Shown: in pieces, positions 1,990-58,140 of the stretch
Position numbering within the stretch: the stretch's first letter is position 1
Layout: every line of letters starts with the position of its first letter
Assembly (NCBI GenBank): GCA_047967505.1
Contig: CM106538.1
Direction: 5' to 3' (one strand)
DNA: 64,000 nt
Origin: Dipteris shenzhenensis
Taxonomy: Eukaryota
Made by a program: the position numbers and the translations under genes
The notes under the pieces: generated by a model
The model's database searches: none
What the model was told of the DNA's origin: nothing
Seen by the model: only the letters and a program-made list of their open reading frames with translations

Positions 1990-4900
1990 GTAAGCTTTCC
2001 AGCTCCGCTCCCTTCATCTCTTCTCCTTTCCATGCATTTCTCTCATCCCTTCCCTCCTCCCCTCCCTTCTCCTCACCTCTTCCTCCTCCTCCTCCTCCTT
2101 TTGCTTCCTTTAGCTCTTTTTGTTCACCCATCGCCATTCACCGGCATCCACACACACACATATATATATATATATAGTTTTGGAGATTTTCCTGCGTCCT
2201 GGAATTTCCCCACAGTGTCGTTTGCACCACCTCGCCTCTAGGACGTAGGCAACGTCCCCTCCCTCTCCTCTTTAGCCAGGATTTTAGCATCGTCCCCGTG
2301 GGTTGACGCTTCGTCGTGCTGTTGCATTTCACCGCGGAGTACAGGGCTCTGGAGGAGCCAGCATTGTATTTGTAATTGGGCAGTGGAATCTCGAGGGAAT
2401 TCAAGGTCCCTTGTACGGCGGTGATAAGCTTGTCCATTTTGCAGGTCGGCCTCCTGGAAGCATTTGCGGATTTTCGCTCGAGTTTTTTTTTTTTTTTGTG
2501 GGGGGGGGGGGAATCCGCGAACTGTGAAAGCGTTTTGGTTTTGCATGCGACTAAGTGTCCCGAGATCATGGGCGTTGTCGGCAATTCGTTTATTGCTGGG
2601 CTCGTATAGGATTGGTGTGTGTCAGAGTCTTTCGTATATTCTCAAGGGGTCTAAATTGCTACCAAGTTTCTGAGCTTCGTAGGATCTGTATAGTTGGGAC
2701 GTTGTTTACAAATTGATAAATGGGCGAACATGGAAATGAGCCGCCGGAAGCACAACTGCATATCTAGATCTGTGGGTCGAAGTTCCTGAGCACGCATTTT
2801 TTAATACGGCAATAGACTTTGAAGACTTTAAAAATGCACTAATCTCATGCAAGCTTAGAGTCATGCACGCATTTGAATACACCAAATAGAGTTGTGGTTT
2901 GAAGAATTAAAAAGTGCACTAGAGTCTTTCTTTTGAATTATAGGAGATTGACAGTGTAGCAACAAATAATTAAGGCCTCTGCCGATTTTTGCAGAAACGA
3001 ATTCCAGTTTGGCATGGACATAGCATTAGATGTGGAAGAATCTGTGACTTCAAATCCATTATGCCTTGCGAGAACTGTGAGCAATTATATTGACAGTGTG
3101 GTATAATTCTTCTCTCTGAATGCACTTTGGGCTTTAAAATTGACAAGGTGAACCCTGAAGCAATTATAATGGTAACTTAAAAAGTTTGGGATTTTCAATT
3201 TCTGAGACTTCTAGTGAATTATAAGCTGGCTTTATAAAGGACATTTTTGGTGACTCTGCTGAACCATCATATTTTAAGCATGTCCACGCTGTTCCCAATC
3301 AATAGGCGTTGCATTTATACGTTTTTCGTATCCATATTCCCAGTGAGCTTAAGGAACACCTGTGTAAAACGAATTATGATTTTTCCTATTGTTGTGCGTA
3401 TCATGTGACACGTTTGCTCACGTGCCACAGGTGAGATTGCTATTCAATCCCTATGTCTTAGTTTTCATCCAGCAGCCAAACCCAAAAAAAATCCAACATG
3501 AATTAGTGGTAAGCAACTGTTATCGTCATGGTTCCACAATTCCTGATGTCAAACTTTATAGCAATTTAGGCTCTTTTTTTGCTGTCCATAAGTTCTCTCT
3601 ATGGCAGTTTTGGTCGTCCTGATGTGAACATGGGAGCCGTGGCCACACGCAATTGGTTTCTGTGTGAAGGGAAGCACAACTTTAGAACTGAGCTGAAGGG
3701 GAAGTGGATGGTTTTGGAACTATCTCACTGTGTGAGGCTGCAGGCGAGTGTTTCAAATGCTGGAAAATGCTCAATTTTGTGAAGATATGTCTTGGAATAT
3801 GCCAATCACACAATTTAAGGCTGGCAGCAGAGCTTCGATTTAGGATTGTGTTAAGTAATAAAAATGTGTCCTATGATGATGGTAGATCATTGAACATGTG
3901 ATTTGATTGGCTTTGCTCTTTGGTCTCTGCCTGTCGTATGGCTGAGTGCCTCTTAGCTCTTGAGAAGCAGTAGAAAATATATTTTGGTCCTATGGATAGC
4001 TGTGGTAGAGCACTGTGCATTGCTTACAGACCTCGAGTGGGTAAAATTTAGCTGAGTCTTTGATTCAAACTCCAAAGTAAATGTTGCTGTATTATGTGTC
4101 TCCTTTTCTGTGGGGAAATGGCAATCTTGTGTTAAGTTCCATCAATTCAAGATTCTGTTGATTTCGTTTGTATATAGGCAAAGCTTGCCTGTACTGTATT
4201 TGGATGTCATGTGGTCCTAGATAGTGTTTTGCTTGGATAAATTCCGCCGCTCTCTTGTTTCCTTGTGTTTGGGCTGGTGTTTCTTTTGTTTTGATAAATC
4301 TCAAGGCTTGCCTAGTTTTTCTACTGATATAGGCAAATCTATCCCAACCCTAGTGGGTTTATGTGGACTACTTCATCTTTAAGAAGACTTTGTATGGGTG
4401 TGAAGCAAGCAGCTCATTCATTTGGTACTCAAAGATAGACAAACATTTCCATATTGAATTTTTTTTTCATTTGATTAGGATTTCATGCAAAGCATGAGTT
4501 TCTGAAATGTTTTGAAACCTAGATGACAGCTTTTGCTTTGATACTGGTGAGAAAGTAAGTGAAGCTTTGCTTACTAAAGTTATTTGTTTTTCTAAATTCT
4601 AAGTTTGTTCATGTCCAGAGTGCCAACAGAAACTCAGTACGAAGACTTTTGTCCCTTCATACGTTTGTATGAGGTGAAAATGTTGATTGACCACTGGATG
4701 TGGCCGCTTCTGCCTAGAGCTTCTTGAAGTGAGGCAATTTCTTCTTCTTGTGGAGATGCACATGACAATAGAAACAATGGTTGTAGGTCATTTGGGTTGG
4801 TGAATTCAAGAAACTGCCGTAGCTGTCGCTATCTTTGGTCGTCCAGTTCTTCTTAGACTGCCCGTTTCTTCCCGTTCCCACCATCACCTGGCGTGGTGAG

Positions 4901-18870: not shown

Positions 18871-19258
18871 GTAAGTAGGGGTGAATGCTCAATTGTGTGG
18901 GTCCGTGTGGATATGTGTAAGAGCGTATGTTTATACTATGGTTTACACTGTTGGGCACTGATGATGTTGGTGACAGAGTTTGTGGTTTTCAACCTTGTGG
19001 GTCACTGTCACTGTAGTATATTTATGGCCTCCCTAGTTCTTTGCAAGGGCTCTGTTTTGACCTGTTTCCATAACTCAGTGGCTGGGTTGAGCTTATCATC
19101 TTCCTTTGGGTTTTTGGTTGCTCTAAGTTTGAATGGGATTCTGTTGCCTTGAAAATAACTCCAGTGGATATGTTCTTGTCTTCTTTAAGTGAATTATGTG
19201 GGAAGGTACAATCTACGCTACCTCCACTTTAGTGTGATACCAATTCTCTGAGTTGCAG

Positions 19259-20020
19259 GTTCCCTCTCCTCAAAGAAAAAGTGCAGATATACGACTTCTT
19301 GGACATGACCCTGAGGTTTATGAGCCTTGTGATGACTCTTTTGCACTTGTTGATGCTCTCCTTGCTGATAGAGCTCATTTGAGAGATCTTCAACCAAGTA
19401 TATGTTTGGAGGTGGGATGTGGCAGTGGCTATGTTATCACTTCTCTTGCACTGATTCTTGGTGATGATAAAGACAAGGTGCAGTTTTTGGCTACTGATAT
19501 CAGTGAGGCAGCAGTAAAGGTCACAACTTGTACCCTTACAGCCCACCATATAGATGCTGATGTCATTGTCACAGATCTTGTGTCAGGACTTGAGAAACGC
19601 TTAAGTGGGGCAGTTGATGTGCTTGTGTTCAACCCTCCTTATGTGCCGACTCCAGAAGAAGACGTGGGGCTAGATGGGATCATTTCTACATGGGCTGGTG
19701 GGGATCGTGGTCGTACAGTGATTGATCGCATGCTGGCAGTTGTAGACTCACTCTTGTCAAGCAAGGGGTGGTTCTATCTTGTTACTGTAGCAGCAAACAA
19801 CCCTGGAGAAATCTGCCAGATTATGAGGCGAAAGGGTTTTGCATCACGGATTGCTATCCAGCGTTACACAGAGGAGGAGAGCCTGCATGTGTTGAAATTT
19901 TGGAGAGAGGCTTTGAGGGATTCGTCAGATTTTGGAGGACCTACATCCCCTTATTCTCGCACATCCTTTCCGCAGATCTCTCTGTCTCGACGGTTTTCAC
20001 GTCTAGTATCATTCAAATAA
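19259..20020 (+). CDS. N6AMT1: HemK family methyltransferase (HemK2/N6AMT1/MTQ2-like eRF1 glutamine methyltransferase), main terminal exon
   Basis: VYEPCDDSFALVDAL, SAM motif I LEVGCGSG, NPPYVPT and WAGG..GR are family hallmarks. The ORF starts at a TTGCAG| acceptor with an in-frame TGA at 19235, so the ATG must lie in an upstream exon. Confidence 0.92.
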   Translation, partial: VPSPQRKSADIRLLGHDPEVYEPCDDSFALVDALLADRAHLRDLQPSICLEVGCGSGYVITSLALILGDDKDKVQFLATDISEAAVKVTTCTLTAHHIDADVIVTDLVSGLEKRLSGAVDVLVFNPPYVPTPEEDVGLDGIISTWAGGDRGRTVIDRMLAVVDSLLSSKGWFYLVTVAANNPGEICQIMRRKGFASRIAIQRYTEEESLHVLKFWREALRDSSDFGGPTSPYSRTSFPQISLSRRFSRLVSFK

Positions 20021-28908: not shown

Positions 28909-29061
28909 TTGCCAGGTTCTATACCTGAAGAATTATGTCTACGGACTCTCTCTCCTGAGAAGAGTTTGGCTGGACATGGGCAGTCCTTGCCAGTTTCTAT
29001 ACCTGAAGAATTATGTCTAAGGACTCTCTCTCCTGAGAAGAGTTTGGCTGGACATGGGCAG
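28909..29061 (+). repeat. 78-bp tandem duplication just upstream of the F-box start codon
   Basis: TTGCCAG(G/T)TTCTATACCTGAAGAATTATG...GGACATGGGCAG occurs at 28909 and 28987 with 2 mismatches. Confidence 0.9.
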
Positions 29062-29081
29062 AGTTATTTCCAGCTGTTGTT

Positions 29082-30137
29082 ATGACATTAAGCAAAGTCC
29101 ACACGTTGCCGAAAATGAAAATAATGTCAAATTTTGATAGACTTCCTGATGGAGTCGTATGCTTGATCTTTTCCAAGCTAAACCTTGCCCAAACTGTGGC
29201 TCAATGTTCCACAGTCTGCCAACGTTGGAAGGCTTTATGCCGAACCGTCGACAGTCTTACCTTTGAATCTTTTCAACTCTTTGAAAACAGGGCGGAAACT
29301 AAGCGGAAGGCATCTTGTATCGAAGCTATTGTGACTGGAATGCTTTTGAAGACCAGTGGCATCCGGAACTTAAAAATAACATATCATCCAGTAGTGTGGC
29401 CATGGATTCCAGACGACTATTTTTCTGAAGGCAAAGTGTGTGAATGGCTTGAACATGTCAAGAGCTCTTTGGAGAACCTCACACTTGTTGACCCTAATTT
29501 AGTGAAACCTGCGTCAGACAGGTTGATACATTTATCTGATTGCCGCAAGTTACAATGGCTGAATCTTTGCTATGGCTCGATTCCTGAAATACCTGTACAA
29601 TGCCGTCGCTTTGAGCTTTTGAAGTCTTGTTTTTTAGACTTGGTTGTTATTAGTGATATTGCACTAGAGGCTTTTGTCGAGTTATGCCCTCTATTGGAAC
29701 ATTTGAAGTTAAACTCTTGCAGGGGTTTAGTTAGTCCACTTATGAGGGCCCCAAGTCTTAAATGTCTGGAGATTTTAAATGACTTGGATGGATGCGTGGA
29801 ATCGATTCAGAGGGTGTATGCAAATGCACCCAAGCTTGTAAAGGTCTCTATAAGCTATGCCAAAGAACTGATCGCTGAAGGACAAGGTCTTTTGGAGCTG
29901 GAATTGTTGTGTCATGTAAAGCCTCAGATACAGGCTTTGCCCGCTGTTAAGAGTCTTTATATGAATGGGCACACCTGGGAACTGGATAGCATATCTGAAT
30001 TTGTGCGACTCGGAACAACAGTGAGAACTTTGTATATTGACGTCAAACTCAAGGAAAAGAATCCTGTGCGCCTTGATTACTTCTTGGGGCATCTGCAGGA
30101 TTTGAATTCACTATACATCAGTTCTGATTTCTTTCAG
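29082..30137 (+). CDS. F-box/LRR-type protein, coding exon 1
   Basis: N-terminal F-box FDRLPDGVVCLIFSKL...CSTVCQRWKAL, followed by LRR-like LxxLxL repeats (CPLLEHLKLNSC). The donor is TTTCAG|GTTTGC, phase 0. The true start may be the ATG at 29115 or 29124. Confidence 0.88.
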
Positions 30138-30384
30138 GTTTGCTTCTAAACGAATGACTTTCACCTTTTCTGCAGCTAGACTCAATGCACTTGCTAATGA
30201 ATACTTAGTGAAGGTGACTGTCTATCCTCTCCTCGTAGCTAATGCATTTTATGTTGTCTAACAAGTCCTCAATGTACTTTTGATTGGAATGCCCAAGTCG
30301 TTTAGAGACTTTAGGTCATGTGAAAAAGTCATCATAAAATAAGGTTTGTTTCACACAGACAATTAATGGGTTATGTGGATTCAG

Positions 30385-35000: not shown

Positions 35001-35143
35001 TTCCATAAGTTTGTGCACTACTTGACAACTTATATAGCTTTGAATTGATGTGTATGCGTGTGTGTCCATGCATGTTTTGTGTGTGTGTGCACAGGCATGC
35101 ATGTGTGCTCGCATGCTTTGTGTGTGTGTGTGTGTACGCGTGC

Positions 35144-37247
35144 AAATTGATATTGCCAAAGCCTTTGATACTGTTCAGTGGGATTTTATTTCATCGACTA
35201 TGCAAGCATTGGGTTTTGGCACAAAAATGCAGCAACTCATTACTTGGCTATATCAAGATAGTGAAGCTGCCTGTATACTCTCAGGAGATATTTCCCCATC
35301 CTGGACTCTTGCTTGCTCTGTCAGGCAAGGATGTCCCCTGAGTGCTTTACTTTTTGCTATAGCCACCCATCCACTGCTTCAATATTTGGATCACCTTTTG
35401 GACACTGATCAGTTGCATGGTTTGGAGATTCTTGGTAGTCGCAGCATGATTGCTCAGGCATATGCTGATGATTCATTCTTTACTCCAAAAAATACTCGGG
35501 CTGATTTGTCCATGATTATGCATGCTCTTTCCACATATGGTTTGGCTGCTGGCCTTCGGGTAAATTTTCAGAAATCAAAATTGCTGCCATTACATGCACA
35601 GGAATGGCACAACCTTCTGTGGCCTGGGGAAATTGTCCCCGCTTCTCATTTTATTCGACATCTTGGTTATCCTCTAGGCTGGGGACTCACCCGCTCACAA
35701 CAAACTGATTGGGTGCTAGCAAAGTTAAGGGCAAAACTTGAATATTGGAAGCTTGCAACTTGGCCATTACATGTTCGCCTGCGAATCACACAATCCATTT
35801 TGATAGCATACATACAATTTTATCTACCTCTCACTATGTTCACTAAGGCAGATCTGGTTTCATTTATGTCAGCTATCATGGAAATTTTCTGGCGTTCAAA
35901 ACATGGCAAGAAAAGTCTCAGATTACTCTCTATGCATCGTCTCTGTTCTCCCAAGATGCACGGAGGTCTGAACATTCTCGATATTCAAATGCATTTACTT
36001 GCTCACATAGGGAAAATGATGATACAGTTTATGCAAGGAGATCAGCCTTGGGCTTTCATGATCCGCTCTCTCTTATTACATCTTCATATATCTGCCTTTG
36101 GGCATTGGCAGCTTACTCAGTGGGATTTTTTATTTGGCTCTATCCAAGGCAAGATCAGAGGATGCCCTTTTGTCTCTCGTCTGCTTCTTGATTGGAAACA
36201 TATTCTATCCCATTTGGAATGGCATGGCAGGGACTCTCTCTCGGGCAACTCTTTGAGGTTAGAGAATATTTTTTGGTCTAAAGTTTTCCACCCCCCTTTG
36301 GCCATACAAGAACCCCGACGTTCTTATTTTCTCTCCTTCAAAGGCATTTCATCTGTGGCGGATGCACTTCAGGATGATGGCACAATCTTATCTTTTTCTA
36401 TGGCTGCTCGCAAATATGGCTTGGGAGCTCATTATCGTCCTTCATGGCATCGAATTTCAGCAATGCTCCAACCGTACTTGCCGGTACTCCATTTGGAACT
36501 TCAGAATCGGCTTGAGGATTGGATCTTACGCTCTCCTTCCTTATATGCCCGTCCTCTGAAGCTCTCACATATCACAGTGTCATCACTGTATAAAGTATTA
36601 TTACCTCCGCCTTGGATTTCCCACAAAGCAAATACTGTTTGGCATATGGATCGCCCAATGAAGTGGTGGAGAAAAAGGCTGCGTCTCCTTTGGCATTACA
36701 AAGTCCCTCTACGATAACAGCTTTTCTTATGGCGAGTTCTTCTTGGCATTTTTCCATCCGGACAGTTACTCGCACACAGACATATTGCTTCAGCTGTTTG
36801 TCACCGATGTCAGCACTCTACTGAATCAGTGTTTCATATCTTTTGGTCTTGTCCAAACACTTCTGATCTCATTGCTCTCATCAGACAAAGGCTTCAACAG
36901 CTATTTCCTACTGTTACTTTTGAGAGATTTTTCTGGTTGTTTGGCTTTCATCCACAGGGATTTGATTTATTTTTTGTATGGGTGCGCTATTGGACCCTAT
37001 GGACTTTATGGATGGACAGAAATCATAGAGTCTTTGGTGATCCACTATTTTCATCTTTTCTTTTTTTCAAACGATCTCTGCAACAATCATTTTATGATTG
37101 TCTTCAGACTCGTTTGATTGATCAGGATGTATATACAGCTTATACTGAGATCTTCAGTTGAGTAGTAGTTACTTCGTTTTTTTGAAGTAACTATGAATGT
37201 AATTATTCTACAGTAATAAAAGATTTCTTCCCACCAAAAAAAAAAAA
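35144..37247 (+). mobile_element. 5'-truncated L1-clade LINE (RT domain plus C-terminal zf-RVT)
   Basis: DIAKAFDTVQW, VRQGCPLS, AYADD and HLGYPLG are present. A single in-frame TAA at 36715-36717 is followed by CHRCQHSTESVFHIFWSC and a stop at 37161. AATAAA and an A12 tail (37236-37247) follow. The 16-bp TSD GTGTGTGTACGCGTGC is at 35128-35143 and 37248-37263. Confidence 0.95.
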
Positions 37248-42073: not shown

Positions 42074-43750
42074 ACCCCCTATAGAATTCACATATTGCAA
42101 CTTGCGTGCAAATTTGGAGCTTGAGCTTTCTCTGAAGTTGCCAAGTATATATCTAGATGAATCCAAGAACATATCCAAACATGCAATTTCAATCTCTAAA
42201 AACATGGAAAAGGGACGTGGTCCCTAAAAACACAATGCGGTGTAGTTTTAATCTCTAAAGACATTAACAAGGGAAGTGGTCACCATAAAAGACCTCAATT
42301 CAAATAGGAGCTTGTTCTATGAGAGACAAACACAACACAATAGAAAAAACACAAGACCAAGGTAAAGGACTATGATAAGCAAGCTAGACTAATTTAGAGA
42401 CATGGGACCCATGTTAGTGGTACACTTGGAAACCATCTCAAATATTGCACAGTAGTAATTATCTTATTGTTATTATCAGTGGGTGCCTAACGTCTTCTCT
42501 TGGGAAGTACGTGCGTTGAAAGGATATGATCTTTGCCTTGTCCCAAAAATGTTATACCACTGGCAAATTTTTGATGTGGAGAATCCCATAAAGATTACAT
42601 TTGAGTTCATATCAATCATTCTCTTCAAGGAAGTATTCCTAAGGTAAACTCATAGTTGAGACCATTAGCTACTCCAATACTTTGCCATGCTAATTTTCGG
42701 GAGATAGAACCTAGCAATATCATCAATCATCATATTACTTGTATAGAGTGGAGCATTTCACATCTAAAACATTTGAAGTTTAAAATGGATGTAGCTGGAC
42801 GTGTAAGCTTCCTACTAATTGACAAAGAATATGCATCATTTGATAGTGCAATGGAAAAGGAAGCAAATCACAAGATCTTTTGTTAGAGCTTCCCTATTGG
42901 ATACCCGTGTAGAGGCATGAATTCTTCCAAAGATGATGTCATCTCCACTCTTGGAAATCACCACAAGATCTTTCCCTAGAACTCCCCTATTGGATGCCCT
43001 ATGAAGCAACAAGTTTTTTCCCCTTCTATTTTTGGCAATATAGATATCTGAGCACACATCATGTGTTGCAAGGTGCATCAAATGAATATGGTATCACTTG
43101 GAGATTCAAGTACACCCATTACAAGTCCTTTGTGTGCTCCATAAAGTTGTCATTCTTGAGGTCACCTTGGAGATTGCAGCTTGGAGAGCAAGTGTCCACT
43201 GTGAAGACCACGAAGATTCAGTAGGAAAGGTTGGAGCTGAGTGTTGGGAGAGAGTGGCTTGAAAAGATCTTTTCCCACACTTTCTTTAGAAATTTGGATG
43301 TTGGCCTTTATTTAAAGGTCTTGAAGCTGCTAGAAGAAAAGCTTGAGCTTTTAAAAAAGCCTTGTGCAAGGCTACCAAGTGGCTTCATGAGGGTTGAGAA
43401 AACCCAAAACCCTCTATAGGCTAACTTGCATAAAGAACACAAAGGGAAGACCCAGTTTTGGGATGAATCCCTGTGCTTTGAAGTGGTTGAGAGAGAAATA
43501 ATTCTTAAAGAACAAAGAATTTGTGTGCTAGAAAGTCAATTGGTTGACCTTAAAGAGGAATTGACTAGGGAGATTGAGCAATTAAAGAAGAACTTGGGCC
43601 ATGTCCAAGTTGAGTTGTGGGCCTCCAAGTCCAAAGGCAAGGATGTGGAGGTGATCACAATTTAGCGATAGAGGTGATATAGGAGAAAAACTATGTTGGC
43701 GATTGAGAAAGAGTGAGGTATGAGTTTGACTAACGAACTCTAGAGGAGAG

Positions 43751-44007
43751 TGACAAAATATGAAGAGGGGAGAGGAGAAGAGTGGAGATGAGGAGAGAGG
43801 GCACAACTAGAGAGCACACCACAAATGACTAACTGTACACTAGAATTAGTTGAAAAAATAGAATATATACAAACCCTTTTAGGGTTAGGGTTAGGGGATC
43901 TAACCCTTTCCTTTATAGCACTCTATAAGGTTAGTGCTATGCACATATGATCACGTGATGGTGCTATGCACACATGATCACATGATGTTGAGCGTGAACT
44001 CTCAACA
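43751..44007 (-). repeat. 3' LTR of the copia element
   Basis: Near-identical to 50862-51118 and adjacent to the PPT (CCTTCCCTC on +). Confidence 0.97.
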
Positions 44008-44095
44008 CCTTCCCTCAAGATCAACATCATGAAGTAGGCCTTCCCTCAAGATGATGATTCTGGGGAATCGAAGAAGGACTGAGCATTACATTCCA

Positions 44096-47000
44096 TCACA
44101 CCCCTTTAATGGGAATGTCCTTCCTCTGCATCAAACCAAGAGCTAGTTGGTGTTTCTCGAATAGCTCTTTACTGAGTGGTTTGGTAAAGATGTCTGCAAC
44201 ATTTTCTTTGCTATCACAATGCTGCAGTGTGATGTCACCAAGTAACACTCTTTCTCTGATGAAGTGCTCTCTGACATCAATGTGCTTTGTTCTGGAGTGA
44301 TATACTGGATTTTTGGCCAATGCTTGAGCCGATTGATTATCACAGTATATTGTTGTTGGCTTTGACTCATCAAAGTAATTTGTTTCTGACAATAGTCTTC
44401 TGAGCCATGTAGCCTCACATGCACCTGTAGTGAGTGCTCTATATTCTGCTTCAGTCGAAGACAAAGAAACAGTTGGCTGTTTGTTTGACAACCATGATAT
44501 AGCACCTTGACCAAGGAAAAATGCATATCCCTATGTCGATCTCCTGGTCTCATGATCTCCAGCATAGTCACTGTCACAGTATCCATGCAACCATGGATGA
44601 CTTCCTCTGTATTCTATCCCAAATTGTCTTGTACCTCTGATGTATCTCAAGACTCTTTTGGCTGCATTCCAGTGAGACTGTTTTGGATTTGCCATAAACT
44701 GTGCTAGTGAGCTTACTGCATAACAAATATCTGGCCGTGTGATTGTCAGATATATAAGAGATCCAATGAGTTGCCTGTAGTATCTGTCATTGATTGTAGG
44801 CTTTTCTGAATCTTTAGTAAGTTTCAAACTCTGTTCCATGGGAGTGGCTGCAATCTTGCAATCTGCCATATGAAACTTCTTCAGGAGATTGTCAACATAT
44901 TTGAGCTGACTCATGAATGTGCTATCTGAATCTCTCCAGAACTCAATTCCAAGACAATAGTGCATAAGTCCAAGATCTTTCATGTCAAACTCTGCAAATA
45001 AGTCTTGTTTTAGTTTTCTGATGAAGCTATCCTTGCTTCGTGTCACAATCAGATCATCTACGTACAAAAGTGCAATAGTAATATCTTCCCCTTGAACTTT
45101 GTAGTAGAGAGTATGATCTGCATTGGACTTCATGTATCCCAGATCAGCAAAATACTTGTCAATTCTGCTGGTTGTTGCATGTAGACTTCCTCGTCTAGAT
45201 AACCATTGAGAAATGCATTCTTGACATCGAGCTGATACACATTCCATTTACTGAGTGTTGCTAGTGATATCAAGAACCGTATGGAATCCATCTTTGCTAC
45301 TGGAGCATAAGTCTCATCATAATCTTGACCATATTGTTGTGCAAATCCTTTTGCAACTAATCTGGCTTTGTATCTCTGAATACTGCCATCTGGATTGTAC
45401 TTCACTTTGTATACCCATTTGTTGGCTATGGCCTTCTTTCTTGGTGGAAGGTCGCATAATTCCCAAGCGTTATTTTTATACAAAGCATCCATTTCTTCAT
45501 TCATAGCAGTTTGCCATTCTGGCTTGTCTACTGTGTCTTCGAAGTACACTGGCTCTTCTGTAGCCATGATGGTAGTCATAAGAGCATAGTTGGTGGTTTC
45601 CACCTGAATTGCTTTGCCTTTCTGAGCATATGTCAATCTGGCTGGTGGTCTGCTTTCCCTAGTAGACCGTCTGAGCTGCTGTGGCACTGATTGGGGTGTT
45701 GTTGGGAATTCTTGCTCTTCTTCATCAACCTGTTCTGTAGGTGACTGTGAAGTCGATTCTTCTATCTCCTGTGTAGGTGAGGTTTTCCATTCTGATTCCT
45801 CATCGAAGATTACATCTCTGGAGATAATGACTTTGCGGTTGATGGGATCATACAATTTGTATGCTTTGCTTTCTTCACTGTAGCCAACCATGATGCATTT
45901 GCATGACTTCGCATCCAATTTCCTGCGATGATCATCATGTATGTGGGCATATGCTATGCAACCAAATATGCGGAGATGCCCAATGTGTGGCTTGTGTCCA
46001 GTGAATGCTTCATAAGGAGTCATACCTTGTATTGGTTCGGTAGGAAGCCGATTAAGCAAGTAGTTAGCTGTAGCTATTGCTTCTGCCCAATACTGATTCG
46101 GAAGATGCTTTTCACTAAGCATTGCTCTAGCACTGTCTGCTAAAGTTCCATTCTTCCTTTCAGCTCTTGCATTTTGCTGAGGAGTATCTGCACATGTGAA
46201 TTGTCTTCGAATGCCGTGATTTTTGCAAAAGTTCATGAATGCTGAAGACATGTATTCACCTCCTCTGTCTGATCTCATGACCTTAATCTTTCTGCCTGTT
46301 TGGTTTTCTACCATGGCTTTGAATTCTTGAAATCTGGCAAACACTTCAGATTTCTCTTTCAGAAAGTAGACCCAACAATATCTTCTGTAGTCGTCGATGA
46401 AGGTCAAGTAATAAAGTGAACCATTGATGCTGCGGGTCTGGGCATAACCCCATACATCTATATGAATCAAATCAAGAATACCTCGTGCACGAGAGGTACT
46501 TCTGACAAAGTTGGTTCGCTTTTGTTTGCCGAAGCAGCATGCTTCACAAACTTTTCCAAGAAACTGTAGCTTCGGAATCCCAATTGCCATATTCTGATTC
46601 CTTAGATCTAACAAGTACTTGAAGTTGACATGACCATATCTCTTGTGCCATTTTGCAGATAGTGGCATCTGTTGCATTTGAGCTGACAAGGCATGCTTAT
46701 CTGGTACTGTAGCTAGCATCCTGTATAAGCGTCCTTCCTTGACACCTTTTGCTACTAGCTGACCTCTTTTGGATTTGTCTCTGATAGTGCATTCATCACC
46801 GTCAAAGATGACTTTGTAGTTGTGTTCCGTCATTTGACCTACTGACAAAAGGTTCTTGCTGAGCTTCGGAACATAGAGCACATCTTTGACTAATCCTTTT
46901 GTACCAGTGAAATTGTTCATAGGGATAACCCCTGTCCCTTGAACCGGATTCGGTGTATTGTCTGCTGTGTAGATGACATTCTTTTGTCCTTCTAATGGCT

Positions 47001-48261
47001 TCATTTCTATGAACCATTCCTGATGATTTGTCATATGAGATGATGCACCGCTGTCGATGTACCAAGGATCCTGTTCCACTTGGTCGACTTGATAGCTGAA
47101 ATCCTCTTTGGGATTGAAATCAGTGTCTAGGTGCATTGTATCAGTCTGATGCAATTCCTCACTTGCAAGAAACATATTGCCATGTTCATTTGCAAAATGA
47201 CTGTGACTAGAATGTCCACCACGATGATTTCCTCTTCCTCGGGAATTCCCTCGATTACTGCTGGATTGACCGCCTTGGTCGTACTGCTTCTTGCGGCAAT
47301 CTCTTTCATAGTGTCCAAACTTGTGACAGTAATTGCACTGGATGTTTGACACATTGGTGGATGCATTCCCTCATCCTTGGAATCTTCCTCGGTTGGAATG
47401 ATTTCCTCTTTGCTGATTTTGATGTTGCTGAGGATGGTGCTAATGTTGATGCTGATTCTGACTTTGATTTTGTTGATGATGACCACTTTTCTGATATGAT
47501 CTACCTCTGTTTCTACCTTTGCCTCTGCTTCTGTCTGAAGCTGTGAATGCCTGATCATTAGAATGACCTTTACGTGCTTGAATGGCCTGAGTCCTGAGTT
47601 CTTCACCAAGTAGAACTGACTGAAGTTCTTCCAGTGTTGGAATTTGCCGTTGGATGGCAATACTATGGACTAGATTCTCATATCCTTCTCCTAGTCCATT
47701 CAGGATTACTTGAACCATTTCTACGGGATTCATAGTCTCTCCTGCTGCTGCAAGTTAATTGTTGTAGTCTTTGATGCGGAGTACATAAGCATGACCGGTT
47801 TCATTGCTGTTGCGGAAACTCTAGTTGATCTGGTTTCTCAGGGTGAGAATCCTAGATGTGTTCTTGGACTCGTAGAGAGCTGTGAACATATCCCATGCTT
47901 CTTTTGATGTCTTGACTGTGTTGAGCTGTCCTAGCATGACATCTTGCACATTCTGCTTGATCAGGTGATAGGCATACTTGTCTTTCTTATCCCATTCTGC
48001 TTGAGCTCAGGCAATGGCAGGATCTGCTACTACTGGTGCGGAAACTGTTTGTGTAGATGTAGATCCTGTTGCTGGTACTGTGACAACAGATGGAGTAGAG
48101 CTACTGGTGGCTGGATCGGCCAATGGTCTAGGTATAGATCCATCGACATACTCCCATTTGTCCTGAAGCACAAGAATGGTCTCCATTCGGTATTTCCATG
48201 TACCGTAATTGGAGTTGTCTAACTTAGCAGATGCCTCCAGATTGAGGTTGCTAGTCGACAT
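44096..48261 (-). pseudogene. Copia gag-pol polyprotein, disrupted
   Basis: Gag KLDNSNYGTWKYRM and zinc knuckle CNYCHKFGHYERDC; protease WYIDSGASSHM; integrase WHKRYGH...CEAC, IDD, RSDRGGEY; RT YKARLVAKG, LLYVDD; RNase H YCDSDYAG, ADIFTKPL. There are five in-frame stops in gag, a frameshifting deletion near 45168 and a stop at 44531-44533. Confidence 0.95.
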
Positions 48262-49969
48262 GGTGCAAACAATGTACTCAAAAGTGTCCTGAAAAAACTC
48301 TGTATGAATCAACTGCAAATACACTGAAGATGCCAAGTGAAATCTCTGTACCGTCGATGAAGATAGAACTGCAGTATATAAGATCTGATCTGTGTTACAA
48401 GGCTTGTGGCAATGATGCCGAGAATAGCTAAGAGGCTTTACAAGGCTAAAAAATGATGTGCACGATGCCATGAGATAGCCGAATAGGCTTTACAATGGTG
48501 CCATGTGTGTGTGAAATCAAGTGCTATCTACCCACTGAACCAATCTGCAATGCCTCTGAACTCTGAAGTCTGCTCACTGAACTGATAAACGTAAGGTTTC
48601 AGGTAATGTAATGATGTGAAATCGGATGTGAGCGTATGGACTGACTCCGAGTAGATACTAGTCGGGAATTTTGGGCATGGCTTAGATTGGCAACTTGGGG
48701 AATTCAAAGCATCCCCTCTATGGCGATCTAGTCTACTCTGATCTAGATCTAAACCAACCATCGATCGATGAAAGAGTAGCAAATAATTCCTTTTCTTTTG
48801 TTCTTTTTAAGTGCTGGGTCAGATGCGTCGATGTAGAGGCAAATGTGCGTGAAGGAAGTGGTTTTGTCGGCGAGGCTCAAATGTGAGTGTAACTTGCACC
48901 GAAATGTGCGCGTGATGTAACGAGCGCATAGAGCACAAAAAAACGAGCGACTTTCCTTTTTGGAGTACCCTCAAATTCTTCCTGGATCAAGAGATATGAC
49001 TTGATCTAGGTGGAGGGGCAAAAGGAGTGCAAATGGTGCTCAATGATGATGTGTCACTGTGAGTCACATGCAGTGATGATGTGGCATTGTGCTTAGCAAG
49101 AGGTGTGCCAGTGAAGCTCTGTGCTGAGGTGGCAGGAGTGTGCACATGCAGTGTGTGCACAGTGTGCCTGGCAAGGGACTGTGTCTGCAGAGGGTTAGTG
49201 CTGACTGGACTGCTGAGGTGGCAGTGCTGAGGTGGCACTGATGATGTCAGCAAGGTGACGTGGCAATGCTGACGTGGCACTGATGACATGGCATAGGTGA
49301 TGTGGCACTATGGATAAGGTTGCCACGTGGTAGCCCTTTGACCACACCTGTGTGTGTGGTGACCTTGGGTGGATAAGGTCTATGCCAGGTGTCAATTTTG
49401 TGGCCAGCCCCTAGGTGCTTCCTATCTGCCACGTGTAGGAAGATTGGAGGTCGGAATCTTCGAGGTTCCGACGGAATCTCTCAAAGATTTCGTTAATGGA
49501 CATTGCCGGTTTGGCGAGATGGTCGCACAAGAGGTGGCGTGGGCGCAAGAGCTATCAAGAGATACCAGCTTGAGGGAGCCATTGTTCCCTGTTGCAGAAG
49601 AGCCGCTCTTGTTTGATGGTGGATGAAACCCGGAGTCGCTGGAGACAAGCCGCTCAGGGACTAGCGTCGACGTCGAATGGAGAGCTGGAGTCTACAGAGG
49701 TTGGAGCCATCGCTATGGCAGAGCTTTGGGCTTGTTTGGCTATGGCGCTGTTCAATATGCTTAGAGATTCGTTGGTCATTGCTGGATGGCATCCGTAGTC
49801 TAGCGGAGATGGCAAATAGCTTTAGTCAGCGAGGTCGCCTTGGAAGCTGTCGGTTACGTTGATGGAGGAGCTAGTATTGAGTAAGGAGCTTTGTGCGTGC
49901 TGGTCGATGCAGAGTTTGGAGATGTTGCTCATTGACTGAAGCTCGTGAAGCTGTTATGAGGCATCGTGC

Positions 49970-50523
49970 ATTTGGAAAGGACCGCATCGGCCGCTTCACG
50001 CCGACAGAGTAACTGTATGCGTGATGATAACTTCTGCTCAGACAGCATGACTGCTGTCGAGTCTGATCTCGTTAACCAGATGCTAGGAAACATCAAGTTT
50101 CTTTCGAGATGCAGAACTGCTGCATTAGCTGCCTTGGAGGCGGGCCTCTATTCCAAATCGGTTCGGCATTTCTCCAAAATTGTGGAGGGTAGGAAAGGCA
50201 CTCCTCAAGGTTTCATTGCGGATTGCTACCTTCACAGAGCTATAGCATACCAGGTGGCGGGAAACGTCGTAGACGCCATAGCAGATTGTAACCGAACTCT
50301 TGTGCTGGACCCCCATTGTACGAGAGCGCTAAGCGCTAGAGCTTCGCTATACGAGATGGTGAGATGCTTTTCGGAGTGTTTGCTCGATTTGCAATAGCTA
50401 AAGATGATTTACGAAGCTGCACTTCGTTATCGAATGGTACGGGAGCCCCGTTGGTCCATCCGTCAACAGACAACAGCAGACATCGACTTTGCTGGTGGCT
50501 TGGACTACATTAACAGCAAAATG
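49970..50523 (+). pseudogene. Captured fragment of a plant TPR-repeat/J-domain (DnaJ-like) gene inside the copia 5' leader
   Basis: ASAASRRQS...DD.F, IKFL.R.RTAALAALEAGLYS.S.RHFSKIVEGR.GTPQGFIADCYLHRA.AY...G...DAIADCNRTL.LDP...AL..RA.L.E.VRC...L.DL. A single in-frame TAG (50395-50397) follows, then LKMIY...LR. From memory this matches the Arabidopsis At2g47440/At3g62570-type family. Confidence 0.85.
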
Positions 50524-50849
50524 TGGACGGAGTTGGTTGCCTCTCTCTCTCAAAGCCTTAGTAAGAAACTGGTCTCTCTTCAACTCAAAGAATTCACCAT
50601 CTCTTGCTCTAAGAAGAAGAAGAACAAATCCTCACAGATCTGTCTCACAAAATGAATTGAAATCCTCACAAGGAAACTCAAGAAATGAACAGAAATCTCT
50701 TAAGGAATGACGGAAATTTTCTCTCAAATGGACAGATGAAGATCTCTCATCGAAAGTGGACTCTCACGGAGAACACTCAAGAGAACTCTCAATCTCACAA
50801 TCTCTCTCACACTCTCAAGAATCACAATGCCTCAGCGGAAGACAAGGAA

Positions 50850-50861
50850 GCTCTGATACCA
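50850..50861 (-). promoter_or_regulatory. Primer binding site (tRNA-iMet)
   Basis: The reverse complement is TGGTATCAGAGC, immediately internal to the 5' LTR. Confidence 0.95.
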
Positions 50862-51118
50862 TGACAAAATATGAAGAGGGGAGAGGAGAAGAGTGGAGAT
50901 GAGGAGAGAGGGCACAGCTAGAGAGCACACCACAAATGACTAACTGTACACTAGAATTAGTTGAAAATATAGAATATATACAAACCCTTTTAGGGTTAGG
51001 GTTAGGGGATCTAACCCTTTCCTTTATAGCACTCTATAAGGTTAGTGCTATGCACATATGATCACGTGATGGTGCTATGCACACATGATCACATGATGTT
51101 GAGCGTGAACTCTCAACA
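50862..51118 (-). repeat. 5' LTR of the copia element
   Basis: Near-identical to 43751-44007 and adjacent to the PBS. Confidence 0.97.
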
Positions 51119-52849
51119 GAGAGAGCTCTCATGCACCTCTTCAAATGCAACTGGAATCAATTTGTTCTAAAAGGAATGAATTGAAAACAAAAATGGAAAC
51201 ACTAAAGCAATAGCTTCAATGACCTTGAGTGTATTTGGAGTGGTCTATTTTCTTTTAATGTAAAGCATCCTATTCTTTTGAGACTCTAGAGAAATAGGTG
51301 TCAACTCATGTGAATCTAACTCAATACTTTGACTAAATAACATTGAAGAAAGTCGAGGCTAGGGTAATGAATGAGACCCAACATCTCAATAATCATTGAG
51401 GTTCCTCATGTATGTGAAAAAAAAGTTTCACCCTTTTGGCTGTTCAATTTGATTCTAAAGACTAGTTTGCAACAAAACCTTTTCCAACATCTAGTATGTC
51501 TGCTAGAATTGCAAATGTAGCAATCTTGTCAATGATGGATACACTCTTAGTCCATTCATCTTTGGGTCGGCGTATTGTGTCATTTCTTATTTTATTTTTT
51601 CTTTTTTCTATTTATTTGCCATAAGTTTCTAATGCTATCCTCTATCATAGATTTGAAGATCAAGAACCAGAGATCATCGACCTTGTCTCACAACACTTGC
51701 TTAGCACACTCTCACCATGTGACAAACATTCGAAACGGTAATCTAGTTCCCTGAAGTATTACACTAGCTTAATGATTCAAAACCAATGGACCGATGGGTC
51801 ATTACACCGATATTTTATAGCTATCAGAGCGGAAGCACACCACCTATCCAACCACAATATGTGTGGCTATATTATATTATATTAGATCATATTATATATA
51901 TATATATATATTATTTAATACTAAGAAATTGCACTCAAATATCCAATCTCAACTCTATCTTATATTGATTAACTTTTTCTTGCTTAAGGATGCATCTTAG
52001 TATAAAAGAGGTACTCCATTATGGCTATCTCTAAAGATCAAACATCAAACATCCAAAACATAGCAAAAGTCTTCTTCTATTGCCAACTTTTAAATTACAT
52101 GCTATCCCTGATCCGGTTGTGGATATAGGGTACTAGAAATTCAAACCATGCCTTACACGACACTAGTTAGCCTATTTTTCTTGTGTTTCAACCTATTGCA
52201 ACTGAGCCTATTGGCTTCTCATTGCAAAAACCTTCTTGGTTTGTTTGAGACAATCCTCTCTATGGCCTTTTGCATTGATTTTTGCTTCCCAATAGATATC
52301 TCAAACCTACAAACCAATGCTTTAGACTTGTCAATGAGTGTGGCCCACATTCTTCAAGCTATCAAGCTCTTTCATCGTACTCCTCCTGAATGGATTCACT
52401 CCACTTCATCATATCCATTTTCTCCTTGAAACTATACCCATGGTCTTGTTTGTTTGATTTATCCTTGTTATCATCGTCTTCCATTTCCTCATATTTAAAC
52501 AACTCCTTGGGAGGTACTCCTGTATATTGTTGAGGGGGAAAGGGATTCTAAAGCAAATATACCCTTGGTCTTGTTTGTTTGATTTACCTTCATAACTTCC
52601 TTATAGAATTCAGAGAATGTTGTAAGACTTCTCCGTAATGTCGAGGTAATCTCTAGGCGAATTGACTTCAAGACAAATTTCAACAAAAGTAATGTCACTA
52701 AATCTACCAATTGTCATGCTTTGATTCTGGGATTTTTGACTCAAACCCCATGATTTTAAACCATTGAGGGACTGACACGTGTTATTTTATAGATTTTATA
52801 AACCTCTTGATACTAAATCTTGTTTGAGAGATGCTTTTGATTGGTCGAA

Positions 52850-53285
52850 ACATTTTCAACAATAGGCAATTATGGCTCTCCCACCACCTACCAATGTACG
52901 GGAGGTAAGGGGGACTTTGAGTAAAACAAAGTATTACCAATGCTTTGTTGACATATTTTTGGAAAGATGTACAAAAGATTTCCTATAAATATGTTGATAA
53001 AGAAAAATGTTTCCTTCCAATCACGACTAGATCAAACTCAAGCCTTTTCTTTGCTTAAGGAATGCATGAGTTAGAGTCTAATTATCTAGCCTCTTAGATG
53101 GGAGGGTGATTTCTATGTGAACCAAAGTGTATCATCCTTACAAAAGGGAGAGCAATGATGCATGCAAATAGTGTATTATGCAAGTCAACTACCACGTGAT
53201 GCTCAAAAGAGGTATACTGTGATGGAGAAAGAAGGTTTGTCTCTTGTTTTTGTAGTAAAGAAGTTTAGATCATACTTGGTGCCTC
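52850..53285 (+). mobile_element. Degenerate Ty3/gypsy RT-RNase H remnant
   Basis: ALPPPTNVREVRG.L and VYYASQL...AQKRYTVMEKEGLSLVFVVKKFRSYL. Confidence 0.8.
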
Positions 53286-55689
53286 CCCTTTTTCTTCCTA
53301 ACATATCATACTTGGTGCCTTCCCCTTTTTCTTCCTTACATATCATCCTTATTTACAATTCTTGTTTCATAGACCCAATCCTCCAAGAAATTTTGCAAAG
53401 TGGCTTTGTGAGACTTAAGAATTCTCTTTTAATTTTATTACAAAAAATACCATGAGGGCCTCCCTTGCAAGTTTTCTTGTATGTAAGGAGAAGAAGAAGG
53501 AATAGGGACAAAGAAAGAAGTATGTGAAGATTTAGACACTCTACTAATTGTTTTCATTTGGACACTCTACTACTAATTGTTTTCACTATGCATTTTGATG
53601 GATAATTTAAGCCATGTAGGCAATGTAGGATCTAAAAGGAAAAGAGGTATGGGCCAAGGGAAGAGAATTTCCAAAATCTATACCAATGTTGTTGAGTACA
53701 ATGCATTAATTTGTTGGATTAGAGAAATTCTTGAGGGAGGGAGTCAAAAAGGTTGGAGTTAAAGGAGGCTCTCAAGAAAATGAAAATGGAGTACATGGCA
53801 AGGAGTCCTAATTTATATAAAGATAATTGGAGCTAAATAAAAGGTTGGAGTTAAAGGAGGCTCTCAAGAAAATGAAAATGGAGTACAAGGCAAGGAGTCC
53901 TAATTTGTCGGATTTACATAAAGAGAATTCGAGCTAAATAAGCTTTTGAGTTCTACAAAATTTGAGCATGTTAACAAGAAGGATAATCAAAAGACTAATG
54001 AGTAGGATACTAAAACTCTTCCTACATTCAAAGTGGCTACTCTTCTGCTAAGCAAAGATGGCCTCTCATTGATGCTATTCTAAATCTTCCAAGTCAGTGT
54101 TGGTATGCATGAGTATCTAGATAGTTTCAATTATAGGGTATGCCTATTAGTCAATACTTAGTATTCATTAGGGTGTTATAAGGTATGTTTATTGGTCAAT
54201 ACCAATATTCACTAAATGCTTGACTCAATAGGAGACCCATCAGATCATACAGGATGACCTATGGTATGTATATGTCCATAGGAGATGGATATCCTCCTTG
54301 TAGCTACACATGACCAAGTTGGCTTTCTACAAATCACACTTCCTTCACTGAACCAAGGATGGTTTCATCCAAGATTTAGGGTACATATAGATCCATCTTT
54401 AGGATACCTACTTATCCATGCAATGCAAATCATCATGGGATAGCTTAGGACCTGATCCCACCAATTCTAGATCAAGGTAGGATGTGAATTTCCTGTGTAC
54501 ACTATGCAAGGTCTCATTTGGAGCCACCTCCTCAAATTTTTAAATTTTAATTGTTTTCCTCTCCTACAATATTCCTCTCTAGATCATACCCAAAGTTACA
54601 CAATGGAGGAATGGTGGATGAGAATGAGTATTCCTAGTTAATCAATGTGAGCAAAACTTGTAGAAGTGCACAAAAAAATAAGTCAAAGTTAAGATAAGGC
54701 ACTTGTTTTGAACCGTTGTAAAAGAAATATGGTTGTGAAATTGACATGTTGAGTTCTCCTTAACAATTCTCCTATTCAAAGGCCCTTGCATGTGGTAGTA
54801 TTTTGAATGCCTTTACATTCTAATTTCTATGCTACGTCAAAGTAAGTACTTTCCAATAGCATTCAACTGCCATGAAATACACAGTTAGTCTTGACACTCA
54901 GATCGCTATCACAACGCTATAACATTTGTCTCATAGTGGGTGGTATCTAGGTATGAAGTATTGTAGGACTTTTTTGAGTTTTTGGGAAATACTTTTAATT
55001 GATATTTTGGACTAAGCAAAGCCTAGTGTGTGTTGCCTTTTTGTCATAGAGAAGTTACCTCTGATACTATAGTCTAAAATAAAAAGCAAGCCCTAATAAG
55101 TTGCCAAGTTTGTGAACAATCTGATTTGTACATTTTATGTTGGCACTATACTTTCATCGTCAACATCCAAAAAGCAAAAATACTTTTATTTAAATCCAAG
55201 ATTCAGAAAAACATTCATCACTTAGAAGACTTAGTAAAGCCATCAAATAGCTATAATTTGTATAACTAAACACCTTGAATGTTTGCATTGCAATAGGGCT
55301 CATAATGGACAAAGGCTTGTTGGGATGACACATACATGAGAGGATGCCTCTTCTAAGTAATTCTATGTGCATGCTTGCATGCATGTAGATATTTCATCAT
55401 TGATCTACTTTTTTGTGATGGTAGGATTCTAATGTTTTGTATAATATATTGCTTTGAAGATAGAAGATGAAAAACGAATCTTATGGAAATTGTTTAGAGT
55501 CAAAGTCATAAAAGGTTAGAGGATGAGAGAGATGTGTGATAGCACAAAAGATAGGATGACTTAAATGTCCTAATATTTAGAGCATAATTTATACAATGGG
55601 GGACTTCTAAAGTACCACAAAAATGTATGAAGGGGGTCATATTACAAGTCTTAATTCAAGATGATAGGAGAATTCCTCAAAGCATGATT

Positions 55690-56320
55690 GCTATACTTTA
55701 CTCCATGCCAGGTCCACCAGCATTCTAGCAAGTACCACGATGTCAGACCACTCACCAGCAATTCTCCATGTGGAGCAGCCCCATTGTGGACTCCTCGAAA
55801 AGGGATTCCACAGTCTCTTACAGGAGGAGAACATTCAGCAGGTGTTGGTAAAGATTTGGAGTCATCCCGTGGACAGTCCCATTGAGGGGTGGGTGGCAAG
55901 GGTAGTTGAGCGAATACAACAGAGCAGTCAAGAGCTATAGATCTAGGCATTGAGATGGCGAGCTGTCCTTTAGGAGCAGGAGCAAGAGCCAGCTCTACAT
56001 TAAGATCTTATGTCCATTGAGAGACTTAGGGAGCAGGACCTAGGGTCCCCATGGCTTCGACACTGTCTCGAGTACATATGCTTGGAGCTACATGACTTGG
56101 AAGTCTGTAGAGCAAAGTTTTCTTACCACTCCTCTAGGGCCACAGATGGGTCTAATAGGGGGATAGAATGATCGACCAGTTTTAACAGACCATAGTCAGC
56201 AAGGATCTAGCTACAACGTCTTGGGGACTTCTAGAGGACAAATACACTCAGACCCACAGAACATGCTCGAGATGACTACATCCTTCTATATCCAGCTTTT
56301 CTAGCCAGAGGAGGCCTCGG
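55690..56320 (+). mobile_element. L1 LINE ORF2 fragment (end of endonuclease and linker), similar to 57518-58140
   Basis: SDHSP motif and a degenerate W...GDR motif. Clear nucleotide similarity to 57518-58140. Confidence 0.75.

Positions 56321-56365: not shown

Positions 56366-56438
<73 letters not shown>
56345..56438. repeat. Compound (GT)n-(GA)n microsatellite
   Basis: Read directly from the sequence. Confidence 0.9.
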
Positions 56439-56441
<3 letters not shown>

Positions 56442-57099
56442 AGAGAGCCAGAGAGTTGTTTTGGTAGATGTGGAAAAACAGAAACTTCTAATTGATCAAA
56501 GGTAGCAATATTTTTCACCTTATAGATATTCAAGTTATCATCACATCCATCCGTCATTTTATTTTATTTTGTTAATCTTTGGAGATGTGTTCTTTTGTCA
56601 TAGTTTCAATGCTTGAAGACTTATACATAAAATGCCCTATCATGCCACGTTTTTTCTTTGTCCTATCGACAACTCTCACAAAAAAATCTGACTTTTAAGG
56701 CAAGGCCACGTGGGGATTGAACTAATGGTGATGCTAGTTTGTCAATGCACAGATACTAATTATTTGCCCTTTAAACCCCCGACAAAGTCACGAAAATCCG
56801 GCTTCCTCGAACAAGCTCCCATGCACAGGCAAGCCTTGTTCACTATGGTCCCATCTCCATGAGTTTCATGGTGGTGAGTTGGAATGTGCATAGGCTTCAT
56901 GACCATGCATGCAGCCAGCTATAGTACCAAATTTTATGTTAGGAATTGCAACAGGCTCTAGTAGGCAAGTCAGTTGATCTTCTTTTGATTCAGGAGCATA
57001 TGTTCTCAGTAGCAAACATGGCACGCCGTCATTGCCTCCTCCTTGGGATAGGCCCAGAGATCTAGTCCGAGCAGTTGGTAGGAGCGGTGGAGCTTGCAT

Positions 57100-58140
57100 T
57101 TCAGTGTCTCGGACACTGGCTTAGAGATTTTTGCACAGGGTGAGCTCATTCTAGGCCGTGTAGTTTGGATGGGCCTCCAGGAAGGAGAGGCACGGATTCA
57201 GGTGCTTGCAAGCAACACGCTAGGCTTTCTGGTGGCAGCTCACATATTACCTCCTAGAGGTGGACTCATGGATTGTTGGGGGAGATTTCAATAACCTTGA
57301 GTTCATGGAGGATAAGCAGGGAGGAGGCTCTTTCTCAAAGATGCCAACAACGGGGGAGAGGAGCACTTGGGAGCAGTTCATTTTTGCGGTTAGTGGCAGG
57401 GATCCTTGGCATGAGCTAGAGTTTACTAGACTTCCAAGTAGCCTGTGCTTTTCCTTTAGCTAGATACGGCACGATGGACTGCTAGAGCATCTGGATAGAT
57501 TAAATATTGGTGACTCGGCTTTACTCCATGCCAGGTCCACCAGCATTCTAGCAAGTACCATGATGTCGGACCACTCACCACCAGTTCTCCATGTGGAGCC
57601 GCCCCATTGTGGACTCCCCCAAAAGGGAGTCCATGGTCTCTTACAGGAGGAGAACATCCAACGGGTGTTGGTAAAGATTTGGAGTCATCTCGTGGATAGT
57701 CCCATTGAGGGGTGGGCAGCATGGGCAGTTGAGCGGATACAATAGAGCAATCAAGAGCTACAGATCTAGGCATTGAGATGGCAAGCTATCCTTTAGGAGC
57801 AGGAGCAACAAGAGCGGGCTCTACATCAAGATCTTGTGTCCATTGAGAGACTTAGGGAGTAGGACCCAAGGTCCCCATGGCTTCAGCACCGCCTAGAGTA
57901 CATACACTCGGAGCTACAAGACTTGGAAGTTTGCAGAGCAGAGTTTTCTTACCACTCCTCTAGGGCCATATGGGTCTAATAGGGGGACAGGATGACCCAC
58001 TAGTTTTTACGAACCACAGTCAGCAGGGATCCAGCTACAAGGTCTTGGGGACTTCTAGAGGACAAATACACTCAGACCCATAAAACATGCTTGAGATGAC
58101 TACATCCTTCTATATCCAGCTTTTCTATAGTCGGAGGAGG
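57100..58140 (+). mobile_element. Degenerate L1 LINE APE-endonuclease fragment
   Basis: WIVGGDFNN, DPW, LDR and SDHSP motifs, with stops and frameshifts. Confidence 0.8.

Follow-up and report, generated by a model that had tools for sequence, protein, structure and literature searches.

LTR retrotransposons that carry pieces of host genes have been surveyed in several grasses. A survey of maize, in the text available, describes 425 intact LTR elements with gene fragments and at least 189 captures (PMC2774510). Gene-fragment surveys of rice and sorghum are cited in the available portions of two other papers (PMC13317346, PMC7264820), and Bs1 of maize carries three fragments. Among maize Sireviruses, 204 elements (3% of those examined) were reported to contain captured exons, and the sections available describe no orientation bias (bioRxiv 10.1101/777037), so antisense captures are ordinary. 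Gene fragments in LTR elements, sense or antisense, are already in print, as is siRNA cross-talk with the donor gene.

We analyzed a 64-kb stretch of DNA from a fern-like genome (the window) in which a copia-type element carries part of a host coding sequence. Like Bs1 and the maize transductions, this locus has a partial host coding fragment between the LTRs of an otherwise normal element, and, as in Bs1, there is more than one foreign piece in the element. Bs1 differs in that, as far as the available descriptions go, its pieces lie in sense orientation and make up a chimeric ORF that is expressed. Here, the fragment is antisense, lies in the 5' leader, is surrounded by non-genic filler and belongs to a fern-like genome. 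None of the elements in the maize survey combined pieces of two standard genes (PMC2774510). The locus resembles the Sirevirus cases in being a copia-type element with a captured exon fragment, and the consequence proposed for those elements, siRNAs that act on the donor gene, was also an idea of the original prediction made from this DNA. It differs in that the maize captures favor 3' exons (64%, in the available sections of bioRxiv 10.1101/777037), whereas the piece found here is internal to the coding sequence. What is distinctive is the host lineage, the leader position, the antisense orientation and the non-genic filler; we make no claim of a first in ferns. The locus provides a clean, datable fern-like example of an LTR retrotransposon acquiring host coding sequence and leaves the general picture unchanged.

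Structure of the copia element

A Ty1/copia element occupies part of the minus strand of the window. Its 3' LTR (43751-44007) and 5' LTR (50862-51118) are each 257 bp long, begin and end with TG..CA, and differ from each other at 2 of 257 positions (43806/50917, A/G; 43857/50968, A/T). The sequence GAGAG adjoins both outer LTR flanks as a TSD (left, 43746-43750; right, 51119-51123). The original prediction, a copia element whose LTRs are nearly identical and whose TSD is 5 bp long, is thus borne out. The PBS, TGGTATCAGAGC, reads from 50861 to 50850 on the minus strand and directly adjoins the 5' LTR; it presumably fits the 3' end of initiator tRNA-Met. A polypurine tract (44008-44020, minus strand; ..TTGAGGGAAG) adjoins the 3' LTR. 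The TG..CA LTRs and 5-bp TSD, the PBS and polypurine tract, and the gag-PR-IN-RT order of the coding region all identify the element as copia. Both LTRs contain a telomere-like (TTAGGG)3 after TTTTAGGG (50990-51007 and 43879-43896).

The gag ATG is at 48261, so the 5' leader extends from the PBS edge to this codon, at 48262-50849 on the minus strand. At 2588 nt, it is very long. Within the window, no leader piece has a further copy, the LTR pair being the only repeated part. We aligned Logan contigs of four public runs (including X1, X3, X4 and X6) to positions 43500-51400. One part of the leader is common to other family copies: a stretch of tandem 14/28/42-bp repeats with a TGACGTGGCA-type unit (49041-49310), which is covered by contigs in all four runs. 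The depth of X1 contigs over this stretch is 1039-3025, compared with about 25-80 over gag-pol. Just past the repeats, at ~49325 and ~49430, are CACGTG motifs that presumably resemble bZIP/G-box sites.

The gag-pol region (44098-48261, minus strand) is broken, a feature absent from the original prediction. It contains six premature stops (48009, 47823, 47757, 47442, 47373 and 44533), and at about 45130-45247 RT is interrupted by a frameshift or a loss. Pfam matches on the minus strand follow copia order: Retrotran_gag_3, Retrotran_gag_2, Pol_BBD (the protease barrel), gag_pre-integrs, rve, SH3_retrovirus and then RVT_2. The RVT_2 match is split over different ORFs, which account for profile positions 1-102 and 132-243, and positions 103-131 are absent. 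The open gag-pol frame of an autonomous copy was not found. The element is recently inserted and already defective. Because six stops and one frameshift are accompanied by only 2/257 LTR differences, mobilization in trans is most likely, and the element was probably copied in trans from a progenitor that was already defective.

A host gene fragment in the leader

The leader contains a piece of a host TPR/J-like gene. It spans 547 bp (49976-50522) on the plus strand, antisense to the element, and corresponds to residues ~171-363 of a ~600-aa protein. Plus-strand positions 49975-50523 translate into 183 residues with no frameshift and a single in-frame TAG (50395-50397), where relatives have Gln. 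We searched the window with four family proteins using tblastn. Each protein gave one strong plus-strand match, in all cases at 49975-50523 (E values 2.5e-76, 8.5e-72, 1.8e-70 and 1.2e-49), and the alignment covers residues 171-363 of a 603-aa protein. Every other match in the rest of the 64-kb window had E > 1. A profile built from 70 family members and searched against the six frames of 47500-51300 found the fragment only (E 1.6e-98). The other three reported frames had E >= 0.43, and no further gene piece was detected in that interval.

A comparison with plant proteins had been proposed as a check of the original prediction. In a set of 5.8 billion proteins, of which we searched those of 406-2000 aa, 191 proteins matched at E <= 0.001, and the closest were 66-70% identical to the fragment. 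The best match to fern TPR/J-like proteins had 68% identity and an E value of 3e-76. The named closest proteins come from ferns (Adiantum, Ceratopteris), then from liverwort, gymnosperm and angiosperm, and are described at their sources as 'J domain-containing protein', 'DnaJ subfamily C member 7-like', 'TPR-like superfamily' or DnaJ with tetratricopeptide repeats. These results agree with the proposed identity of the fragment as a non-TE host gene piece of the plant TPR/J-like family. Its antisense placement between PBS and gag, and its contiguous frame with one stop, were also predicted correctly, and the predicted coordinates (49970-50523) are correct to within 5 bases. No short near-identical proteins were found in the 5.8-billion-protein set, the closest being 55% identical.

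The fragment does not include the J domain that had been part of the original description. Pfam TPR_1 matches the fragment with an E value of 1e-5 and 25.5 bits, slightly below the cut-off of 27.8. On the nearest homolog, the DnaJ profile match starts at residue 377 and is weak (E 0.0014; 19.1 bits, where the cut-off is 27.8); 7 of 19 family members match this profile at E <= 0.01, all of them under the Pfam cut-off. Since the fragment ends at residue 363 and the J-like match begins at 377, only the TPR part is present, and the profile search of 47500-51300 found no J-like piece. A complete open gene is likewise absent, with only residues 171-363 of about 600 represented and one TAG in the frame. 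We read the fragment as a passenger pseudogene piece that is decaying, and nothing points to a function of its own.

Permissive tblastn matches in the flanks of the fragment were considered as remnants of the donor gene and rejected as noise. One example is a match of 49577-49702 to residues 139-186, with an E value of 0.017 that applies to a 700-base database and 11 queries. We also looked for the marks of a LINE-type retrocopy and found neither a poly(A) tail nor a separate TSD at the fragment ends (49960-49980 and 50515-50560).

Intron content of the parental interval

The absence of an intron from the fragment had been read as a sign of mRNA capture, and comparing intron positions in the parental gene had been proposed as a check. 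We performed this comparison on 54 homologous plant genomic or transcript loci (metagenome contigs). At 41 of the 54 loci, a single HSP runs across residues 175-360. No intron was found within this interval at the other 13, where the alignment is cut by contig ends or small gaps. The family does have a conserved intron at residue ~145/146, which we observed at 28 loci (gaps of 65-1068 nt). It lies just before a WRYLVLG motif and is followed by a long exon that continues past residue 460 (loci L003-L054). The 54 loci are 35-53% identical to the fern protein, so that the intron pattern applies to ferns by inference. Because the interval is intronless in 41/54 loci, a missing intron is expected from a DNA source too and carries no weight. 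The comparison does not discriminate between a cDNA and a DNA origin, and the argument from intron absence to mRNA capture fails. It also serves as a caution: where the parental interval is intronless, an intronless fragment is no proof of mRNA capture.

The edges of the fragment suggested another idea about introns. The donor match ends just before a GT (50523-50524), and an AG is present at 49978-49979. These dinucleotides may mark the fragment as a whole fern exon in a gene with extra introns, in which case a DNA or pre-mRNA origin would follow by another route. The single-exon idea is weakened by the homologs, which lack an intron at residues 171 or 363, and the AG and GT are compatible with chance as well as with a fern-specific exon.

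Donor-type contigs

Two Logan contigs match the fragment and nothing beside it. A 2233-nt contig from X1 matches 49976-50522 with 15 mismatches in 547 positions and no gaps (97.3%), and a 2230-nt contig from X3 matches 49979-50522 with 12 mismatches in 544 positions and no gaps (97.8%). Both contigs are unlike the window on either side of the fragment. A match restricted to the fragment, with diverging sides in two contigs, indicates that the donor gene exists. In both contigs the match begins near nt 691-696, a position that would fit residue 171 behind a ~180-nt 5' UTR. This fit suggests that the contigs represent the donor-type gene, as transcripts or at the least as loci, with the provisos that the RNA nature of the runs is an automated guess only and that their species may differ from that of the window.

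The fragment differs from the donor contigs by 2.2-2.7%, compared with 0.78% between the LTRs. The difference is not significant (Fisher p = 0.25 and 0.11), and it is a comparison with contigs that possibly come from another species.

A foreign mosaic around the fragment

The gene piece is part of a larger foreign insert of ~1.3 kb, GC- and CpG-rich, that spans about 49308-50610 (edges approximate). The original prediction did not include this mosaic. GC content is 0.50-0.55 over about 49000-50500, compared with ~0.42 in the element. The observed/expected ratio of CpG is 0.78 at 49311-49975 and 0.96 at 49976-50522; elsewhere in the element it is 0.19 (LTRs), 0.33 (gag-pol) and 0.35 (50523-50861). 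The resulting GC and CpG island covers 49311-50522. A ratio of 0.96 indicates that the fragment has not been long inside a methylated element.

Besides the gene fragment, the mosaic contains a second foreign piece (49431-49874, no strand assigned), which is a relative of a separate 1189-nt contig from X1 (depth 54). The contig differs from the window at 25 of 178 positions over 49431-49608 and at 10 of 111 positions over 49764-49874. Between the two matches, 155 nt are replaced by 27 nt. The matching parts are 86-91% alike. Outside the fragment, the mosaic comprises flanks of 665 bp and 88 bp that are neither donor transcript nor common leader.

We examined how contigs from other copies of the element relate to the insert. 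Such contigs diverge from the window at 49293 (X1, n=2) and 49278 (X3, n=2), and at the far edge they diverge at 50611 (X3, n=1) and 50786 (X1, n=2). Divergence at these edges indicates that other family copies differ over roughly 49300-50610. In the contigs of the four runs we detected no further copy that has the insert. The notion that the copia family carries the fragment is not supported.

Contig coverage of the mosaic was low in X6 and X4. Depth in bins over 49308-50627 is 0-2.3 in X6 and 0-0.65 in X4, compared with 82-176 in the flanking leader bins of X6; absent coverage over the mosaic carries no evidential weight. The coverage in X1 and X3 consists of the donor-type contigs and the matches to the 1189-nt contig. 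No contig in the four runs bridges any insert junction, and none of the 15 joints listed, out of 52, skips the insert. The leader shares words with 11 sequencing-run rows, none above 0.17 of words, and there are no RNA runs among the runs listed.

Unbridged junctions are what would be seen if a chimeric read or a misjoin had placed unrelated DNA in the leader. The insert, however, lies neatly within one element that has matching LTRs and a TSD. The 2-3% difference of the fragment from the donor contigs and the stop codon are those of an old copy and not of a misplaced read. We regard an assembly artifact as exceedingly improbable.

Outside the gene fragment, no Pfam or Rfam family and no convincing protein relative was found in the insert. 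Pfam detected 0 families in the seven ORFs of the remaining insert, and an Rfam search of the insert returned one match (E 0.13) far under the gathering score. An 87-aa ORF (49363-49623) was searched against 1.84 billion proteins; its sole match, a 916-aa protein translated from a tandem repeat, was judged spurious. A 10-bp repeat, TCTCTCAAAG, occurs at 49477 and 50546, and we found no TIRs inside it and no matching termini around it. The motif GACGGA..CTCTCAAA is present at 49469, 50526 and 50711. As a junction microhomology, this motif is marginal and was set aside, since 10 of 300 shuffles reach its score, and clear microhomologies were not found at the junctions.

Route and timing of acquisition

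The mosaic resembles the cargo of Pack-MULE and Helitron elements, which is a patchwork of short pieces from multiple loci, in either orientation, for which introns are not diagnostic. The insert edges distinguish it from these carriers. At about 49300 and 50610 we found no TIRs, no 9-10-bp TSD and no Helitron ends (5'-TC..CTRR-3' and a 3' hairpin). Where plants repair double-strand breaks, filler DNA forms mosaics of ectopic sequences, each some hundreds of bases long, that are sharply joined. The insert is like filler DNA in that it is a mosaic with sharp junctions and without transposon ends. The antisense orientation, the foreign flanks and the lack of transposon ends favor a DNA-level patchwork.

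The original prediction had proposed that a parent element captured host mRNA by template switching. In such a Bs1-type transduction, reverse transcriptase inside the virus-like particle would jump from the copia RNA to a host transcript packaged with it and then return. In keeping with this route, the fragment lacks introns, comes from within the coding sequence, has sharp boundaries and lies in an element that has near-identical LTRs and a TSD. Bs1 sets a precedent for several fragments in one element, in the available portion of PMC13317346, and the three occurrences of GACGGA..CTCTCAAA could act as microhomology. The orientation of the fragment argues against it. Template switching on mRNA predicts a sense insert, and transduced sequences are usually sense, according to the part of the source available (PMC7264820). 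An antisense fragment would presuppose either an antisense transcript of the host or switching while the plus strand was being made. The intronless state is weightless where 41/54 loci have no intron in the interval, and the flanking 665 bp and 88 bp derive from neither the donor transcript nor the common leader. A template switch to host mRNA is thus not supported, and we consider it improbable.

Damage within the fragment bears on when the patchwork was acquired. Of 45 columns with >=95% conservation among 70 relatives, 4 are changed in the fragment, where family members have 0.76 such changes on average and 5 at most. This count includes K171E (49975), which is at the homology edge, one base outside the donor match, and may not be within the fragment. 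The conserved-column changes include CGC>TGC (50110) and GAA>AAA after C (50155). In these two, and in the CAG>TAG that created the stop (50395), a C in CG or CHG context has undergone a transition. From the LTR divergence, about 2 changes would be expected in 547 bp since integration. The stop and four conserved-column changes, set against about 2 expected, suggest acquisition before integration, although they are not decisive.

These numbers also bear on a later origin, in which the patchwork was copied into the leader at this locus only, after the element had integrated, as filler DNA, by gene conversion or as a nested element without ends. Several observations would fit. No other insert-bearing copy was found in the contigs of the four runs, the pieces come from at least two loci, as in break repair, and the divergence between fragment and donor is not significantly above that between the LTRs. 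The CpG ratios of 0.78-0.96, compared with 0.19-0.35 in the rest of the element, are those of a recent arrival from unmethylated DNA. On the other side, the damaging changes exceed the approximately 2 substitutions expected since integration, and the insert has no TSD, TIR or poly(A). We consider a post-integration origin unlikely.

On balance, we lean towards a model in which a defective progenitor took up the passenger fragment, inside a ~1.3-kb patchwork, at the DNA level and was then retrotransposed in trans. The progenitor would have been a resident copy that was already defective, and it could have gained the patchwork when a break was repaired from ectopic templates, or from a nested insertion whose ends have since been lost. 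Proteins of intact relatives would then have reverse-transcribed and integrated the composite RNA, yielding the present copy with its near-identical LTRs and 5-bp TSD. Further copies sharing the same junctions would indicate that retrotransposition in trans had multiplied a patchwork formed at the DNA level.

Possible RNA cross-talk

Over 547 nt, an LTR-driven transcript of the element would run antisense to the mRNA of the donor. With ~97-98% identity over this length, siRNA cross-talk with the donor gene is possible, judging from the sequences. If small RNAs map to the fragment, the 'epigenetic conflict' model developed for maize would extend past seed plants.

We considered whether the fragment could be a selected regulatory module, in which the donor gene is tuned, or silencing of the element blunted, by antisense RNA or siRNAs. 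The 12-15 mismatches in 547 nt should leave many perfect 21-24-mers. Cross-talk through siRNAs between captured fragments and their donors is documented in maize, in the available sections of a study that also saw little advantage to the TE (bioRxiv 10.1101/777037). The other family copies differ at the insert edges and the element is defective, both of which speak against selection for such a role. A regulatory module is very unlikely in our estimation. It is equally a long shot that this copy represents a recently mobile and trans-mobilized fern copia lineage with an antisense exon of a conserved co-chaperone gene in its transcribed leader, and that the resulting siRNA or dsRNA would measurably lower expression of the donor gene or methylate it, or would moderate silencing of the element. 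If true, this would be a maize-type epigenetic conflict in a fern, arising from a DNA-level patchwork spread by retrotransposition.

Other features of the window

Several features of the window lie outside the element. Between 12156 and 16346 there are several direct repeats of 184-237 nt that are 91% identical and lie 2.8-3.2 kb and ~0.37 kb apart; these may be tandem units or LTRs that belong to a further element. The long ORFs at 19238-20017, 29037-30146 and 35044-36714 comprise a small-methyltransferase-domain ORF, an F-box/LRR ORF and an RVT_1 reverse transcriptase (non-LTR type). A block of ~0.6 kb is repeated at 55696-56303 and 57519-58127, with a spacing of 1.82 kb and 87-91% identity, and a (CA)n/(GA)n microsatellite is present at about 56400-56480. 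A short RT/RNase H-like ORF was recognized by eye at 53159-53455.
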